From: Nitrospinaceae bacterium
GTDB taxonomy: Bacteria > Nitrospinota > Nitrospinia > Nitrospinales > Nitrospinaceae
Assembly (NCBI GenBank): GCA_965223665.1
Contig: OZ245011.1
Span: 2,368,001 to 2,432,000, forward strand
DNA length: 64,000 bases
Reading direction: 5' to 3'
A program made the translations under genes and the position numbers. The notes below the pieces were generated by a model that was given only the letters and a program-made list of their open reading frames with translations, did not search any database and had not been told where the DNA came from. Position 1 is the first letter of the stretch. Every line of letters begins with the position of its first letter. This document shows positions 2,361-8,121 of the stretch, one piece after another.

Positions 2361-2676
2361 TTATCGAATTCCACCAAGAAAGACAAATATAGTCGCCAAT
2401 TAACCTAATCGAATACCGTTAAAAGTTTATCCGAAGGAACCTTAAATTTCAATGAAAATTATTGTAATTTTAAATGCTCATCGATAGTTCTTTTTCAGCA
2501 AGAAATCCAATTCCATTATGTTTCTAACCTCAACCTTAGGTATTCGGAATTTAATTTAGCAGGCTTCAAATTATCCCTTCCATTTCCAATTTAAAATTAA
2601 TTCATTTAAAAATAATATGTTATGTGACATATTTTTCAATCCAACCAAATATTATCTCGAAAATTAAAAATTTTTA

Positions 2677-2705
2677 TTGCAATATCACCCATATATTGGT
2701 ATACA
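2677..2705 (+). promoter_or_regulatory. Putative sigma70-type promoter of the cas operon
   Basis: TTGCAA-17 nt-TATACA with TG extended -10, about 80 nt before the cas8e start. The -10 is imperfect. Confidence 0.35.
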
Positions 2706-2785
2706 GAATCGTTATTCCTAAGGTTGATACACTCAATAATTAAACTTAAATTTCAGTTACTCTGTCAATATTCATCACCAAAAAT

Positions 2786-4366
2786 ATGTTCAATTTAGTT
2801 GAGAATTGCTGGATACCAGTAAAAATGAAGGACGGATCAAATGAACTTATAAGACCATTTGATGTTACAAAAAATCTATCATCGAATCCCATAGTATCGT
2901 TATATGCCTGTCGTCCCGATTTTAATGGCGGGCTAATTCAGTTTCTAGTTGGGTTGGTACAAACTTCAATGACACCTAAAAACTCAGAGGAATGGAACAA
3001 TTATTTCCATAACCCACCCTCTACTTCTTTATTAAAGTTCAATTTCTCAAAATTAAAATACGCTTTTAATTTGGATGGGGAATTTCCCCGATTTATGCAG
3101 GAGGGAAACTTAGAAAACAACTCCAGAAAAACTATCAATTTTTTATTAATTGATTCTCCCGGAGAAAACACGATAAACAAAAACACAGATCTTTTTGTAA
3201 AGCGCAATCAATATTTAATGCAGTGCTATCCTTGTACAGCAACAGCATTATTTTGCTTAAATACATTTGCCCCTTCAGGTGGTTCAGGACATAGAACATC
3301 CATTCGGGGAGGAGGGCCGCTAACAACTGTAATTTTTGATCCAGAAAGCCTATGGAAAACAATTTGGTTAAACATTATTCCAGAAGATAAATGGCCAAAA
3401 ACTAATTGGAAATTAGATTCCCATTTAGATGCCCATATTTTCCCTTGGTTAAAATTTAAAAAAACCTTATTACAACCGGAAGAGATTCACCCCTTGCAAA
3501 TGTATTGGGGTCTTCCAAGAAGAATTCTATTAGATTTTCAGCTTGAATCCTATGGAACATGCCAACTGTGTGGCACTCAAAATCAAAAATTGGTCAAACA
3601 TTTTTTTACTGCAAAACATGGTTACCATTATAAAAACTTTCCTTTGCCTCATGTACTTAGTCCCTATATTAAAAAATCAAATAAAGAAATTTTTCCAAAG
3701 AAAAGCCCCGTTAATGATAATTCTTACAGACAATGGTTAGGACTAATTTTTAAAGACACAAAGTTAAATGTTAATCCCGCTTTTGCTGTCACAACATTTC
3801 TTCATGAAAAACCTCGATTTCCTTCTATCCGGCTTTGGTCTTTCGGATTTGTAATGAATAATATGAAACCGCTTAATTGGAAGGATTGGGAAATTCCATT
3901 ACTAATTCCATCAAAGGAATACATAGCAACATTCAAAAGTTTCATTAGTCAACTAATTCTAGCAGCTGACCATATCGCTACAATTATTTTTTCAAAATTA
4001 AACCATTCCTGGAAGTTAGACTCTAGCCAACCTAATCAGGAAATTGATAACCAAATCAAATATTTCTGGTATTCAACTGAATTCTACTTTTATAAGTTAT
4101 TGAACAAAGCCCTAATCCTGCTCCCCGATGATTCCAATCTAAATTTCTTAAAATTAGATTGGTTAAAAGCTATAAATCAAACTACAGAAAAATTATTCCA
4201 AATTCATTTTTCCAAAAGCCTTTTTAGAAAAAAAGATTTACGCAAAGAGTCTATCATTTGGAAAAACTTGATGTGGTATGCATCCGAGAAAAATCCAAAA
4301 CTAAGAAAGATTCTTTTATTACCGGATAATATTGAAAAAAATTATACCTTAAATTTTTTACGATGA
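2786..4366 (+). CDS. cas8e: Type I-E Cascade large subunit Cas8e (Cse1/CasA)
   Basis: FNLVENCWIPV start, RPDFNGGLIQFLVGLVQT, CYPC and CQLC Zn ligands, APSGGSGHRTSIRGGGPLTT loop, YWGLPRRI. Confidence 0.93.
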   Translation: MFNLVENCWIPVKMKDGSNELIRPFDVTKNLSSNPIVSLYACRPDFNGGLIQFLVGLVQTSMTPKNSEEWNNYFHNPPSTSLLKFNFSKLKYAFNLDGEFPRFMQEGNLENNSRKTINFLLIDSPGENTINKNTDLFVKRNQYLMQCYPCTATALFCLNTFAPSGGSGHRTSIRGGGPLTTVIFDPESLWKTIWLNIIPEDKWPKTNWKLDSHLDAHIFPWLKFKKTLLQPEEIHPLQMYWGLPRRILLDFQLESYGTCQLCGTQNQKLVKHFFTAKHGYHYKNFPLPHVLSPYIKKSNKEIFPKKSPVNDNSYRQWLGLIFKDTKLNVNPAFAVTTFLHEKPRFPSIRLWSFGFVMNNMKPLNWKDWEIPLLIPSKEYIATFKSFISQLILAADHIATIIFSKLNHSWKLDSSQPNQEIDNQIKYFWYSTEFYFYKLLNKALILLPDDSNLNFLKLDWLKAINQTTEKLFQIHFSKSLFRKKDLRKESIIWKNLMWYASEKNPKLRKILLLPDNIEKNYTLNFLR

Positions 4367-4878
4367 ATTCATCAATTCTAATTTTTAAAAAAAATAATAC
4401 TGAGGGACAAATTTTATTTACATGGTGGAATTTACTGCAAAACAATCATTTACAACTAACAGAGTTAATTCACTGCAAAACTTTAAATCAAGTTTTTTTG
4501 TGTCAAGGATTCTGGACTCTATATAAACAAGTGTATAAGAAGGAACCTAATATTTGCGAGGAAAGGCTTGCATTAATTGCTGGATTATTGCCCAAAATAA
4601 CAAATCATATAACAGGGATATCCATCCCTCAACGAATGGCTGCAGTTGTTCCTGGGCGTTGGAATTATCCATTAGTTAGTTATTCCAGGTTTATGCGTTT
4701 ATTAATGATAAATTCGAAGGAAGACTTATATAAATCTTTTTCAGAAAACTTAAGACTAATCCGTTATTCAGCAGACATTTTATCATTATCCAATGATCTT
4801 TATAATTGGGGAGAATCCGTTAAAAAGTTATACGCCATGGAATACTTTTTTAAGTCTCCCGAGACATATATTGAATAA
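4363..4878 (+). CDS. cse2: Type I-E Cascade small subunit Cas11 (Cse2/CasB)
   Basis: Position in operon with ATGA overlap. WW..L, RLALIAGLL, VSYSRFMRLL, LYNWG..VKK.YAMEYF features. Confidence 0.85.
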   Translation: MNSSILIFKKNNTEGQILFTWWNLLQNNHLQLTELIHCKTLNQVFLCQGFWTLYKQVYKKEPNICEERLALIAGLLPKITNHITGISIPQRMAAVVPGRWNYPLVSYSRFMRLLMINSKEDLYKSFSENLRLIRYSADILSLSNDLYNWGESVKKLYAMEYFFKSPETYIE

Positions 4879-4897
4879 GGATTAAACCAAAAATAAA

Positions 4898-5962
4898 ATG
4901 ACCCGTTTCCTGCAAATACATTTATTAACAGCTTACCCCCCTTCGAACCTGAATCGTGATGATCTAGGAAGACCCAAAACAGCGATTGTTGGAGGAACAA
5001 ATCGTCTTCGTATTTCTTCACAAAGTTTAAAAAGGGCATGGCGAACTTCAAATTTTTTCAAAGAATCCTTGTCAAAACATATAGGAATTCGGACTCGTTC
5101 AATGGGAAAAATAATTTTTCAAAAATTTTTAGATAGAGGTGTTTCAGCCACTCAAGCAAAAAAATGGACGGTTCAAATTTTGGGTACTTTTGGAAAAGTC
5201 AAAAAGGGGAAAGAAAATAGGTTTAATGAAGAACTGGAGATGGAACAATTGGTTCATTTTAGCCACGAAGAAGAAAAATCTATTAATACATTAATAAAAA
5301 CTTTAACGGAACAAAATAGAAGTCCAAACAAAGAAGAATTATTTTTATTAAGGAAAGAGAATAGTTCCATAGACATTGCTTTATTTGGAAGGATGCTTGC
5401 TGAAAACCCTTATTACAATTTCGAAGCAGCTGCACAGGTTGCACATGCATTCACCATTCAAAAAATTGCTCTTGAAGATGACTTTTTTACCGCTGTGGAT
5501 GATCTAAATATAGGTTCATCTTCCGCCGGCCATATCGGAAACAAAGAGTTTAGTTCGGGAATATTTTATTTATATATTTGCATCGATAAAGAACTGTTAC
5601 TCAAAAATTTAAATAACAATACAAAACTAGCTGTACAAGCTACGAATGCGTTAACTATGTCCGCTTCAAAAGTTTGTCCTGGGGGTCATCAAAATAGTTT
5701 TGGCCATTACGGATATGCCATGTTCTTGATGTCAGAAATTGGTAATTACCAGCCCCGTTCATTGGCCGCTGCATTTTTCGATCCAATCAAAGAAAATTAC
5801 CATCACCCTATGATTCAACAGGGAATTGATAAATTGTTCGATGTTCGTGAAAAAATAGACAACATATATGAGAAATGCGCCGAAGATTTTTATTTTTTTG
5901 ATGTGATGGCCAACAAAGGTAGTTTAAAAGAAACTTTAAACTTTCAGGAACAAACATTTTGA
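4898..5962 (+). CDS. cas7e: Type I-E Cascade backbone Cas7 (Cse4/CasC)
   Basis: FLQIHLLTAYPPSNLNRDDLGRPKTA, RLRISSQSLKRAWR, DIALFGRMLA, AAAQVAHAF, DFFTAVDDL, QPRSLAAAF. Confidence 0.97.
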   Translation: MTRFLQIHLLTAYPPSNLNRDDLGRPKTAIVGGTNRLRISSQSLKRAWRTSNFFKESLSKHIGIRTRSMGKIIFQKFLDRGVSATQAKKWTVQILGTFGKVKKGKENRFNEELEMEQLVHFSHEEEKSINTLIKTLTEQNRSPNKEELFLLRKENSSIDIALFGRMLAENPYYNFEAAAQVAHAFTIQKIALEDDFFTAVDDLNIGSSSAGHIGNKEFSSGIFYLYICIDKELLLKNLNNNTKLAVQATNALTMSASKVCPGGHQNSFGHYGYAMFLMSEIGNYQPRSLAAAFFDPIKENYHHPMIQQGIDKLFDVREKIDNIYEKCAEDFYFFDVMANKGSLKETLNFQEQTF

Positions 5963-6723
5963 ATCATTTAATTTTTACCTTATATAGCCCTTTGCAATCT
6001 TGGGGAACTATTGCGATTGGAGAAAGGAGGGAGACCTTTACTCATCCTTCAAAATCTTCAATCTTAGGTTTGGTTGGAGCATCGTTAGGGATACCCCGAA
6101 ACACATCCAAACCACATGTCATAGACCAACAACATCTTGAATTACAAAATTCCCTTGGATTCGCAGTTGCCATTCAGCAACCGGGCGTCTTGATCAGTGA
6201 TTTTCATACTACTCAAGTCTCAAAAAAAAATAGAACTCCTCTTATTTCTACCCGTATGGATGAAATAGAATTTTCAGCTTCAAATAAACCAAACATTTCT
6301 AATATTATTTCTTATAGAGATTATCTTTGTGATGCCATTTTTATTATTTGCTTATGGTGCAAAGACTCCAAATCACCTATTTCATTAGAAAAGATTTCTC
6401 GAACATTAAAACAACCTCAGGGAAATCTTTATTTGGGGAGAAAATCCTGTCCACCGGCCCTACCCCTCAACCCTCAAATAATAGAGGCCAAAAGCTTATA
6501 TGATGCATTCTTTTATTTTAAAAAAAGGAATCCGAATGAAATTATTTTTTCCAATAAAATCCTTTCCAATATTAAGGTATATTGGGACCATTATCCCAAC
6601 CACGGCATAGAAAATATTCGAGAAAAAAATACTCGCAGGGATCTTATCCTAAGTCGCTGTCGTTGGCAGTTTCAAAATCGGACTGAGTTTGGGGGAATCC
6701 TCTCGTGGAAGTCAAATTCTTAA
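5959..6723 (+). CDS. cas5e: Type I-E Cas5 (CasD), no HNH fusion
   Basis: LYSPLQSWG...RETFTHPSKSSILGLVGASLG, DFHT, RDYLCDA, LYLGRKSCPP. Confidence 0.95.
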   Translation: MNHLIFTLYSPLQSWGTIAIGERRETFTHPSKSSILGLVGASLGIPRNTSKPHVIDQQHLELQNSLGFAVAIQQPGVLISDFHTTQVSKKNRTPLISTRMDEIEFSASNKPNISNIISYRDYLCDAIFIICLWCKDSKSPISLEKISRTLKQPQGNLYLGRKSCPPALPLNPQIIEAKSLYDAFFYFKKRNPNEIIFSNKILSNIKVYWDHYPNHGIENIREKNTRRDLILSRCRWQFQNRTEFGGILSWKSNS

Positions 6724-6730
6724 GCGTCCT

Positions 6731-7399
6731 ATGTATATAAGCCAAATTCGTTTACATTCTAAAGTTGCTGATTCGAGACTACCAAAAGTGGTAATTGAAA
6801 ATAATTTATACGGTTTGCATCAATTGATCTGGAGTTTATTTAGAAGCGAAAAAAGAAACTTTCTATTTCGCATGGATCGTAAAACAGAATATATATCCTT
6901 CATTGTTGTTTCTAAAGTTCCTCCAAAAAATTCCAACAATTTATGGGAAATTCAAACCAAACCCTATCATCCCAAAATTTATCAGCATCAAACTTTAACT
7001 TTCAAACTTCGAGCCAACCCCATCAAAACCAAGAAAAACTTCGATAAAAAACAAAAAAGACACGATGTCGTTATGGAAAAGAAAAAAGAATTAAAAAATA
7101 AAAATGAGGAATTAAAGAAACCGTTCCTTTACAACCAATTAATCCAAAGCACTGGGTATCAATGGCTACAGGAACGAATGGGAAACCATGGGTTTAATGT
7201 AAAATTCGAAGAAGTGCGAATTGATGGTTATCTGCAGCACAGGTTTCAAAAGAAAAATCATTCCATCAAAATTAGTACACTAGAATACACTGGACAATTA
7301 ACTGTTCTAGACCCGGTTAAGCTTTCAAATAGTCTTTTTCAAGGTATCGGTCCTGCAAAAGGATTTGGTTGTGGATTGCTATTGGTAAAGAATCCATAA
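6731..7399 (+). CDS. cas6e: Type I-E crRNA endoribonuclease Cas6e (Cse3/CasE)
   Basis: MYISQIRL, YGLHQLIWSLF (catalytic His), FLFR, FKLRANP, C-terminal G-loop GIGPAKGFGCGLL. Confidence 0.95.
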   Translation: MYISQIRLHSKVADSRLPKVVIENNLYGLHQLIWSLFRSEKRNFLFRMDRKTEYISFIVVSKVPPKNSNNLWEIQTKPYHPKIYQHQTLTFKLRANPIKTKKNFDKKQKRHDVVMEKKKELKNKNEELKKPFLYNQLIQSTGYQWLQERMGNHGFNVKFEEVRIDGYLQHRFQKKNHSIKISTLEYTGQLTVLDPVKLSNSLFQGIGPAKGFGCGLLLVKNP

Positions 7400-7401
7400 G
7401 A

Positions 7402-7489
7402 ACGTTCCCCATTTTATGGGGATGAACCGGTTGATGTCAGAAAAAGGCAGTTTATTCTTAATTGTTCCCCACTTTGTGGGGAGATTTTT
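7402..7489 (+). CRISPR. Minimal type I-E CRISPR array: 2 repeats and one 32-nt spacer
   Basis: Repeat 1 at 7402-7429, ACGTTCCCCATTTTATGGGGATGAACCG, has the I-E-type GTTCCCC...GGGGAT(G/A)AACCG form. Spacer 7430-7461 is GTTGATGTCAGAAAAAGGCAGTTTATTCTTAA. Repeat 2 from 7462, TTGTTCCCCACTTTGTGGGGAG, has a degenerate 3' tail. Confidence 0.88.
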
Positions 7490-7491
7490 AA

Positions 7492-7710
7492 TTAGCCTAT
7501 ATATTGAGCCAAAATTTTTACATCTTGATAGTAGTTGGCACCTTTACGATCACTATTGATACCTTCAGCAAGTTCAGCGGCCCTTTCCTCGGAAATACCT
7601 AAAGCTCCAGCTAAATAATCGGCTAATACCTTATTATCGGCATAATAATCTGCCCCAGAGCGATCCTCTAAAATGTTTTTGGCTACATTTAATGTGTTAT
7701 CATTTTCCAT
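7492..7710 (-). CDS. 72-aa acidic hypothetical protein with internal tandem duplication
   Basis: GGAGGGG RBS just upstream of ATG 7710. Two copies of DRxGAxYYxDxKxLAxY. Confidence 0.75.
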   Translation of the reverse strand: MENDNTLNVAKNILEDRSGADYYADNKVLADYLAGALGISEERAAELAEGINSDRKGANYYQDVKILAQYIG

Positions 7711-8048
7711 TTTCCCCTCCAAAATAAATTTACAAGAAGTTTATCATAGTCTCCCAATCACTTATAAGAGGACAAAAAACATTTTTTCAAAAATCTATTT
7801 CTTCAAACATTGCTTCTCAGGTTTTAAGTTTTATTTTTCAATTTAAACAGCACGGTAAACCAGATTCTTAATAAGGAAATGAAGTAAAGGGAAAAAGTCA
7901 AACTCTTTCGGACCATTTTGTGTTATTTACGGGGACATAAGGGGGAAGTGATCGGAAATCTAGAAAAAAAATTACAAAATGTTAGGAAATTTCACCAACA
8001 GAATCGAAAGGAATGAAAGTAAGAAGGGTAAACAATTGAAACACAAGA

Positions 8049-8121
<73 letters not shown>

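Follow-up and report, generated by a model that had tools for sequence, protein, structure and literature searches.

A type I-E Cascade operon without cas3 or adaptation genes, followed by a single-guide mini-array: a candidate RNA-guided repressor in Nitrospinaceae

Until now, the CreR, CreA and scaRNA guides have been known from functioning immune systems, in which they play a side role. Here we describe a locus in a marine Nitrospinaceae bacterium that carries the five genes of a type I-E Cascade, followed by a mini-array with one guide, and that has no Cas3 or adaptation module of its own. It lies in a 64,000-nucleotide (nt) stretch of contig OZ245011.1 (GenBank assembly GCA_965223665.1, positions 2,368,001 to 2,432,000 of the forward strand), which we call the window. 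Positions refer to the window unless they are preceded by G000:C1, which denotes contig C1 of the genome under study (G000; 6 contigs, 98.6% complete; absences were scored genome-wide). The comparison genome, G001, is a sister species of the same genus.

In S. enterica, whose system is of type I-E, an AAG-flanked site ~140 bp ahead of casA has 15 nt in common with CreR, which together with the E. coli Cascade represses 8.6-fold (bioRxiv 10.1101/2023.03.10.532045), and CreR-like regulatory mini-arrays have been predicted widely (10.1101/2023.03.03.530964). The Nitrospinaceae mini-array resembles CreR in having two repeat-like units around one guide, the first with a 5' handle and the second distally degenerate with its hairpin kept. 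As in CreR, only the seed-proximal part of the guide, ~15 nt, matches a site flanked by an AAG protospacer-adjacent motif (PAM) upstream of cas8e, the predicted outcome being autorepression (10.1101/2023.03.10.532045, 10.1101/2023.03.03.530964). Guide seed and target are also both kept in the one related locus, that of G001. In contrast, the known CreR elements lie between cas3 and cas8e of complete systems, where they tune immunity by competing with canonical CRISPR RNAs (crRNAs). The present locus has no guide other than the regulatory one, which stands directly behind cas6e in the operon; with no cas3, cas1-cas2 or canonical array, the locus is incomplete as a CRISPR-Cas system and offers no canonical crRNAs to compete with. 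The match also contains two internal mismatches, unlike that of CreR.

Other described systems share single traits with the locus. CreTA of haloarchaeal type I-B systems has a degenerate mini-CRISPR whose seed-only match brings Cascade to a promoter, and it provides an account of Cascade genes kept independently of immunity (PMC8501985, PMC9458426); the I-B CreA guide needs to pair at no more than positions 1-5 and 7-11 (PMC8501985). Our locus differs in being I-E rather than I-B, in having no recognised toxin and in its second candidate target, a distant conserved host regulator. In Francisella novicida, Cas9 with the scaRNA, likewise a non-canonical guide with a partial match, represses a chromosomal gene outside the locus (a lipoprotein gene; 10.1101/2023.03.03.530964), but that effector is class 2 with nuclease and immunity kept, whereas the present one is class 1 and its immune parts are gone. 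The I-E2 (Cas5-HNH) and I-F4 (Cas8-HNH) variants and the CRISPR-associated transposons (CASTs) also lack Cas3 and mostly lack adaptation genes (PMC12669027, PMC10910872). In these systems Cas3 is replaced by an HNH fusion or by transposition proteins, while the operon described here has no extra domain and no TniQ; the Cas3-less I-E variants of current classifications have HNH or transposon partners (PMC12669027, PMC10910872). Type IV-A, finally, is a nuclease-free class 1 effector thought to inhibit transcription (PMC12669027), but type IV is plasmid-borne, with Csf proteins, DinG and multi-spacer arrays, and targets plasmids, whereas this locus is chromosomal and has I-E proteins and one guide. 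In the literature available to us we did not find a Cas3-less I-E Cascade that stands alone and carries a regulatory mini-array; the supplementary tables of 10.1101/2023.03.03.530964 lay outside the search and could list one. The mechanism we propose is the known CreR-type repression; what would be new is that it occurs without a nuclease, in a conserved module standing alone, and with a candidate target in the host.

The Cascade operon and its guide in two sister species

The operon consists of five co-oriented open reading frames (ORFs) at 2786-7399, with a 4-nt overlap in two gene pairs and one 19-nt gap. The mini-array starts two bases past the cas6e stop codon and has no leader. The features are as follows (dN/dS, the ratio of nonsynonymous to synonymous substitution rates, and dS are Nei-Gojobori estimates between G000 and G001 orthologs; aa, amino acids).

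2786-4366, + strand: cas8e (cse1), 526 aa; Pfam PF09481 259 bits, model positions 1-448/450; TIGR02547 188 bits; dN/dS 0.19
4363-4878, + strand: cas11 (cse2), 171 aa; TIGR02548 35.7 bits (cut-off 28.5); dN/dS 0.16
4898-5962, + strand: cas7e, 354 aa; Pfam PF09344 309 bits; 88% identity to the G001 protein; dN/dS 0.056
5959-6723, + strand: cas5e, 254 aa; TIGR01868 154.8 bits; Pfam Cas5 113 bits; dN/dS 0.18
6689-7399, + strand: cas6e, 236 aa from the first in-frame TTG; TIGR01907 146.7 bits; Pfam 160 bits; dN/dS 0.22
7401-7429, + strand: R1, a complete repeat of the I-E type; 7-bp hairpin; 8-nt 5'-handle part intact (ATGAACCG); 27/29 identical in G001
7430-7460, + strand: the single spacer-like guide, 31 nt; positions 1-16 conserved, 17-31 diverging
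7461-7489, + strand: R2 repeat with its hairpin kept and a degenerate 3' end, followed by a T-run

Cas8e, Cas11, Cas5e and Cas6e all score above the NCBIfam I-E equivalog cut-offs, Cas11 passing this cut-off only, since its Pfam score of 20.3 bits is under the threshold of 24.6. The cas6e ortholog of G001 starts 14 codons further downstream. Cas6e keeps a histidine aligned with position 20 of E. coli CasE, which we take to be the catalytic residue. In a Pfam search, Cas5 and Cas8e showed no added domain such as HNH, and both have canonical lengths. An earlier reading of the window, made from the letters alone (the sequence-only reading), had described five intact, tightly coupled Cascade genes without an HNH fusion on Cas5 or Cas8, and the ORFs and family matches agree with it on both points.

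That reading had also reported no cas3, cas1, cas2 or transposon partner, and the whole-genome search extends these absences, as far as the I-E system is concerned, from the window to G000. The only Cas1 of the genome is a Cas1c, and a single ORF exceeds both the HD and the helicase-core cut-offs for Cas3 (TIGR01587, TIGR01596); it lies inside a separate type I-C operon, ~310 kb from the Cascade locus. Cas2e (TIGR01873) and TniQ gave 0 matches in the whole genome, and no second copy of the I-E repeat was found anywhere in it. Of the traits of a canonical I-E system, G000 therefore retains the Cascade genes cas8e, cas11, cas7e, cas5e and cas6e and lacks a Cas3 of the subtype, a Cas1e-Cas2e module and a multi-spacer array with leader. 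A cognate cas3 together with a long array of the same repeat elsewhere in the genome, which the sequence-only reading had named as a finding that would speak against it, is not present: the I-C locus has a different, 32-nt repeat in ~78 copies. This I-C locus (G000:C1:2681447-2693900) comprises cas3, cas5c, cas8c, cas7c, cas4, cas1c and cas2. Its cas8c is split over three ORFs and its cas7c over two, which points to frameshifts or assembly errors, and to judge from these reading frames the I-C effector may be inactive.

A search with Cas7 through 40 genomes of relatives, in addition to G000 itself, found a close homolog (88% identity) in G001 only. G001 has the same five genes and mini-array in the same chromosomal place, and the two loci share their flanks: the genes for a leucine-rich repeat (LRR) protein and a 231-aa outer-membrane protein, a 76-aa ORF (orf76), tRNA-Phe and csrA-fliW. 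The sole Cas1 of G001 belongs to a Cas9-Cas1-Cas2 locus (type II). Because the complete CRISPR systems of the two genomes differ (I-C vs type II), the Cascade-only locus is the element that they share, and the older one. G001 had no Cas3 match above the cut-off in a search with the HD model alone, which indicates that no Cas3 is available in trans there. A complete I-E system, from cas3 to cas2 with an array, occurs in another family of the same order; its Cas7 is 52% identical.

The five cas genes show dN/dS of 0.06-0.22 at dS of 0.56-1.23 and in this resemble the flanking housekeeping genes. Such low ratios at high dS, in a locus that both species share, rule out a recent deletion remnant under relaxed selection, which the sequence-only reading had named as another finding that would speak against it; the comparison of orthologous loci that it had called for shows the architecture kept in the second species. 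In nearby non-coding DNA, identity between the two genomes is only 62% (282/453 columns) in the upstream intergenic region and 37% in the spacer between orf76 and the tRNA. The sequence itself is secure, as Logan contigs show 0 differences across the locus in four public runs, all made from a single sample that is probably the source of the genome; the four runs are of DNA type and confirm the sequence only.

The guide is conserved in a distinct pattern. Positions 1-16 are identical between G000 and G001 (16/16), whereas only 10 of the 15 bases at positions 17-31 agree, and by arithmetic the chance of all five changes falling in the last 15 positions is 0.018. Folding predicts the R1 and R2 hairpins in both species. 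The R2 stem differs from that of R1 by one compensatory change, and in G001 the R2 stem is kept while the loop differs in sequence and length. For the full-length guide no match was found in G000 at up to 9 mismatches. The repeat-spacer-repeat unit that the sequence-only reading had placed after the operon is thus located at 7401-7489. Its "single hard-wired guide" is indeed single, but it is not a fixed full-length spacer, since the match to the targets comprises the first 16 bases only. The end of the locus, which had been put at 7710, runs into orf76, an unrelated convergent ORF at 7492-7722.

In the minimum free energy (MFE) fold of both species, GGUUGAU, which joins the 3'-terminal base of R1 to guide bases 1-6, pairs with AUUAGCC just past R2 (7429-7436 and 7491-7497). 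According to this model, the pairing might mask the seed in the unprocessed transcript; it might equally be accidental, as the partner is the end of orf76.

Candidate target sites of the guide

We searched G000 for sites with an AAG PAM, an intact seed (guide positions 1-5, 7 and 8) and a match at 12 or more of the 14 pairing positions among 1-16. Exactly two sites passed, which we call Site A and Site C. The expected number of chance sites per genome is 0.34 with shuffled guides and 0.51 with random genomic 16-mers. The sites are listed here with a shorter match, Site B, and with a candidate promoter.

2519-2537, - strand: Site A, AAG PAM at 2535-2537 and a 16-nt partial protospacer (2534 down to 2519)
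2677-2705, + strand: candidate proximal cas promoter, TTGCAA, 17 nt, TGgTATACA, proposed from conservation and not called by the consensus scan
2720-2729, + strand: Site B, AAG and GTTGAT; seed match of 6 nt only, immediately past the candidate promoter
G000:C1:2857688-2857706: Site C, AAG PAM, matching guide positions 1-5, 7-10 and 14-16; 482 kb from the locus

Site A lies ~250 bp upstream of cas8e, in the 425-bp region that separates the operon from the divergent outer-membrane protein gene. It matches 13 of the 16 guide positions (1-5, 7, 8, 10-14 and 16). The mismatches are at position 6, which is non-pairing in Cascade, and at positions 9 and 15, and no base beyond 16 is complementary, so that the complementarity stops exactly where the conservation of the guide ends. 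Because the guide matches its candidate targets over the first 16 bases only, it looks like the regulatory guides of CreR and CreA. The arithmetic chance expectation of such a site in the 425-bp region is ~3-5e-5.

The sister species keeps Site A, the lone change within the 16 nt being at position 6. The site falls in a conserved island (2517-2552) inside the region that is 62% identical overall, and 10/10 Cascade-less relatives lack it at the corresponding place in front of the porin ortholog. In G001 the protospacer begins at the last -10 base of a σ70-like promoter facing cas8e (TTGTCA-17-TAAAAT, 10/12). The candidate proximal promoter also sits in conserved blocks (2662-2681 and 2693-2718), and the 10-nt stretch of Site B is identical in both species. 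As the guide match of Site B ends after position 6, its significance is, from the sequence, uncertain. A mini-ORF begins within the Site A island (2518-2559, + strand). It encodes 13 aa in G000 (MFLTSTLGIRNLI) and 35 aa in G001, with the first 11 residues the same; no Shine-Dalgarno sequence was seen.

Site C is identical in G001. It covers the -35 box of a promoter, TTGACT-17-TAAAGT, that lies ~135 nt in front of a gene for an XRE/CI-type helix-turn-helix (HTH) protein. The protein has 139 aa, is 100% identical between the two species and occurs in 39/41 genomes of the order searched. We aligned the upstream regions of 11 of 12 orthologous loci, one having been dropped as it was cut by a contig end. 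The TTGAC of the -35 box is kept in 11/11 and the -10 TAAAGT in 8/11, while the PAM and seed positions 1-5 of Site C are found in both Cascade-bearing genomes and in 0/9 Cascade-less ones. On these data Site C is a candidate target, which could also have arisen by chance.

Within the XRE region (G000:C1:2857183-2858250), the protein is 100% identical as against ~83-94% for most neighbouring proteins, and the ~650-bp non-coding region upstream of the gene lies largely inside a 700-nt alignment with 93% identity. Such identity points to additional conserved elements (RNA or regulatory) or to recent exchange. The motifs TAGGTATT and TCGGAAT, which occur near Sites A and C, were considered and rejected, because AT-rich 100-nt stretches are estimated to share 7-8-mers by chance.

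These observations suggest a chain of events in which expression, processing, PAM preference, binding and repression are all inferred. The operon would be transcribed together with the mini-array behind cas6e, and Cas6e would cleave at both repeat hairpins to give one crRNA-like RNA of ~60 nt, composed of the ATGAACCG handle, the 31-nt guide and the R2 hairpin. Cascade loaded with this RNA would recognise AAG-flanked DNA that pairs with guide positions 1-16 only. With no Cas3, binding could not end in DNA degradation, and the expected consequence is promoter occlusion. At Site A, at the start of the promoter-like element, this would amount to CreR-type autorepression, and the divergent CarO-like porin gene is possibly a second gene affected. 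At Site C, occupancy would cover the -35 box of the promoter of the XRE regulator.

Weighing the explanations

We consider it probable, on the sequence evidence, that the I-E effector module has lost its nuclease, its array and its adaptation genes and has long been maintained as a repressor that stands alone and binds DNA under RNA guidance, and the guide and Cascade are most likely a gene switch rather than an immune system. The sequence-only reading had already proposed a domesticated, non-immune Cascade; the comparative evidence supports this part of the proposal, repression itself being inferred. If this is true, Cascade can end up devoted to RNA-guided repression, as a natural analogue of engineered Cascade-based CRISPR interference (CRISPRi), with immunity gone and the regulatory circuit alone kept under purifying selection across species. 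A self-repression loop by itself has no evident use, so that either regulation of a host gene (through Site C or the porin) or an addiction module would have to be added. The stronger version, in which a class 1 effector has been fully domesticated as a host transcription factor, combining autoregulation with control of the core XRE promoter, whose PAM and seed would have evolved in the Cascade lineage only, is one that we put forward tentatively and regard as somewhat doubtful. If the XRE gene is under such control, Cascade has been wired into the cell's own regulatory network.

Several results weigh against the repressor. The PAM is taken over from E. coli, and G001 was searched for Cas3 with the HD model alone. 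Two sites genome-wide are not above chance: at least two arise with a probability of 0.057 if the guides are shuffled and of 0.10 if genomic 16-mers are used. When the pattern was reversed as a control, it found as many matches as the real one or more, also in G000, and for this reason Site C alone could be coincidence. Nor is the conservation of Site C in G001 independent, as identity is 93% over all 700 nt of the region. Sites A and C mismatch once each within positions 7-11, at position 9 and at position 11 respectively, while in I-B CreA single changes among the ten positions 1-5 and 7-11 abolished function (PMC8501985) and the S. enterica CreR match covers 15 consecutive positions (10.1101/2023.03.10.532045). 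The promoter that abuts Site A is good only in G001; its G000 counterpart scores ~8/12 by inspection and was missed by the scan. Site A also lies outside the promoter-like block that is conserved best (2677-2705). The locus is carried by two sister genomes only, which represent one evolutionary lineage. A metagenome scan with the Cas7 alignment returned 592 pattern matches, none of them a relative, and a metagenome scan with the repeat returned 0 matches.

Purifying selection on all five genes in the absence of immune function could also be explained by selfish addiction. The guide and Cascade would then repress a toxic RNA or small protein, and the cas genes and mini-array would be kept by post-segregational killing while the immune parts decayed. 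A precedent is CreTA, in which a degenerate mini-CRISPR matches the toxin promoter by its seed only and so renders the Cascade genes addictive (PMC8501985). Candidates for a small toxic product are the short ORF that starts in the Site A island, with its shared first 11 residues, and three mini-ORFs in the leader downstream of Site C. However, these mini-ORFs are unconvincing: the one at Site A has no Shine-Dalgarno sequence and differs in length between the species, and the leader at Site C belongs to an XRE gene that is present in 39/41 relatives, most of them without Cascade. Pfam and NCBIfam recognised no toxin family among the neighbours, and the divergent gene encodes an ordinary outer-membrane β-barrel protein that is also found in Cascade-less relatives. 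We regard addiction as unlikely. The repressor and the addiction module differ in whether such Cascades owe their persistence to usefulness or to addiction, a question on which this locus bears.

Quite unlikely, in our view, is a defence function in which the complex silences an element with a full-length protospacer, or helps to destroy it through another nuclease or the I-C Cas3 that G000 carries. Type IV-A, which has no nucleases, does appear to hold mobile elements in check through transcriptional inhibition (PMC12669027). The R1-spacer-R2 unit resembles the trailer end of a former array. For a full-length target, however, a guide whose 3' half has drifted (5/15 changed) while its 5' half is frozen is unexpected. 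No full-length match was found in G000 DNA, nor a full match to the 16-nt part in G000 or G001, and a scan of viral contigs with a pattern of positions 1-16 and 20-24 gave 0 matches. No nuclease domain is fused to the effector, G001 has no Cas3 HD match above the cut-off (HD model alone), and we know of no case in which Cas3 is recruited across subtypes.

The remaining explanation is decay: an ordinary I-E system would have lost cas3, cas1-cas2 and its array by deletion, what is left would be turning into pseudogenes, and the site matches would be coincidental. A Gilliamella locus appears to have decayed in this manner (no cas3, cas1/cas2 fragments, short array), and Site C could be a chance match. 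Against decay, the five ORFs are intact in two species at dS 0.56-1.23 and dN/dS 0.06-0.22, and contigs from independent assemblies carry no frameshifts. The 5' half of the guide and both hairpin stems are conserved between flanking non-coding stretches that are 37-62% identical, and the chance expectation of Site A is ~4e-5. A revival by recent exchange of the locus between the two genomes is disfavoured by the high dS. We therefore hold a decaying remnant to be very improbable.

For the stand-alone repressor, the five genes, one guide and two candidate operators form a testable system for the complementarity that promoter occlusion needs.

Occurrence elsewhere and neighbouring features

A survey with the Cas7 alignment recovered 80 I-E loci, 38 of which had enough flanking DNA to be assessed. 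Both cas3 and cas1 were present in 33 of these 38 loci, two from Photorhabdus (L058 and L061) had cas3 only, and three had neither. The Photorhabdus loci have no cas1 or cas2 within ~10 kb. The three loci with neither gene are those of G001, of Gilliamella (L069) and of an Acidobacteriota metagenome-assembled genome (MAG; L040). The Gilliamella locus, with fragments only of cas1/cas2 and a 4-repeat array, looks like a decaying system. On the Acidobacteriota contig (L040:4582-12670), cas3, cas1 and cas2 are absent from the 10-kb flanks; the locus has two cas8e paralogs and, directly after cas6e, a degenerate three-repeat mini-array whose hairpin loops differ. Neither of the two spacers of this mini-array has a convincing PAM-flanked partial target within 21 kb, in a scan that was noisy owing to high GC. 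The Acidobacteriota locus hints that the Cascade-only architecture recurs.

The neighbouring features of the Nitrospinaceae locus are the following.

1665-2360, - strand: divergent outer-membrane β-barrel gene (CarO-like), 231 aa; signal-peptide-like N-terminus, C-terminal Phe
7492-7722, - strand: orf76, convergent ORF abutting R2, 76 aa; 83% identical in G001, dN/dS 0.15
8049-8121, - strand: tRNA-Phe (ARAGORN and Rfam), identical in G001; downstream edge of the locus in both species

The 231-aa protein matches the NCBIfam model OMP_CarO with 60 bits, under its 300-bit cut-off, and its G001 ortholog is 84% identical (dN/dS 0.09). In an Rfam search of three loci, the tRNA-Phe was the sole match. 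The GC content of the cas locus (0.28-0.38 over 2500-7500) is lower than the genome mean of 0.38 and than that of the flanks (0.39-0.42); low GC beside a tRNA-Phe gene is consistent with an old horizontal acquisition. For orf76 we found no Pfam or NCBIfam family and no Atlas match. The protein contains an internal two-fold motif, A-D/N-Y-Y...L-A-x-Y, and its ORF ends 2 nt from R2; G001 has the same arrangement.

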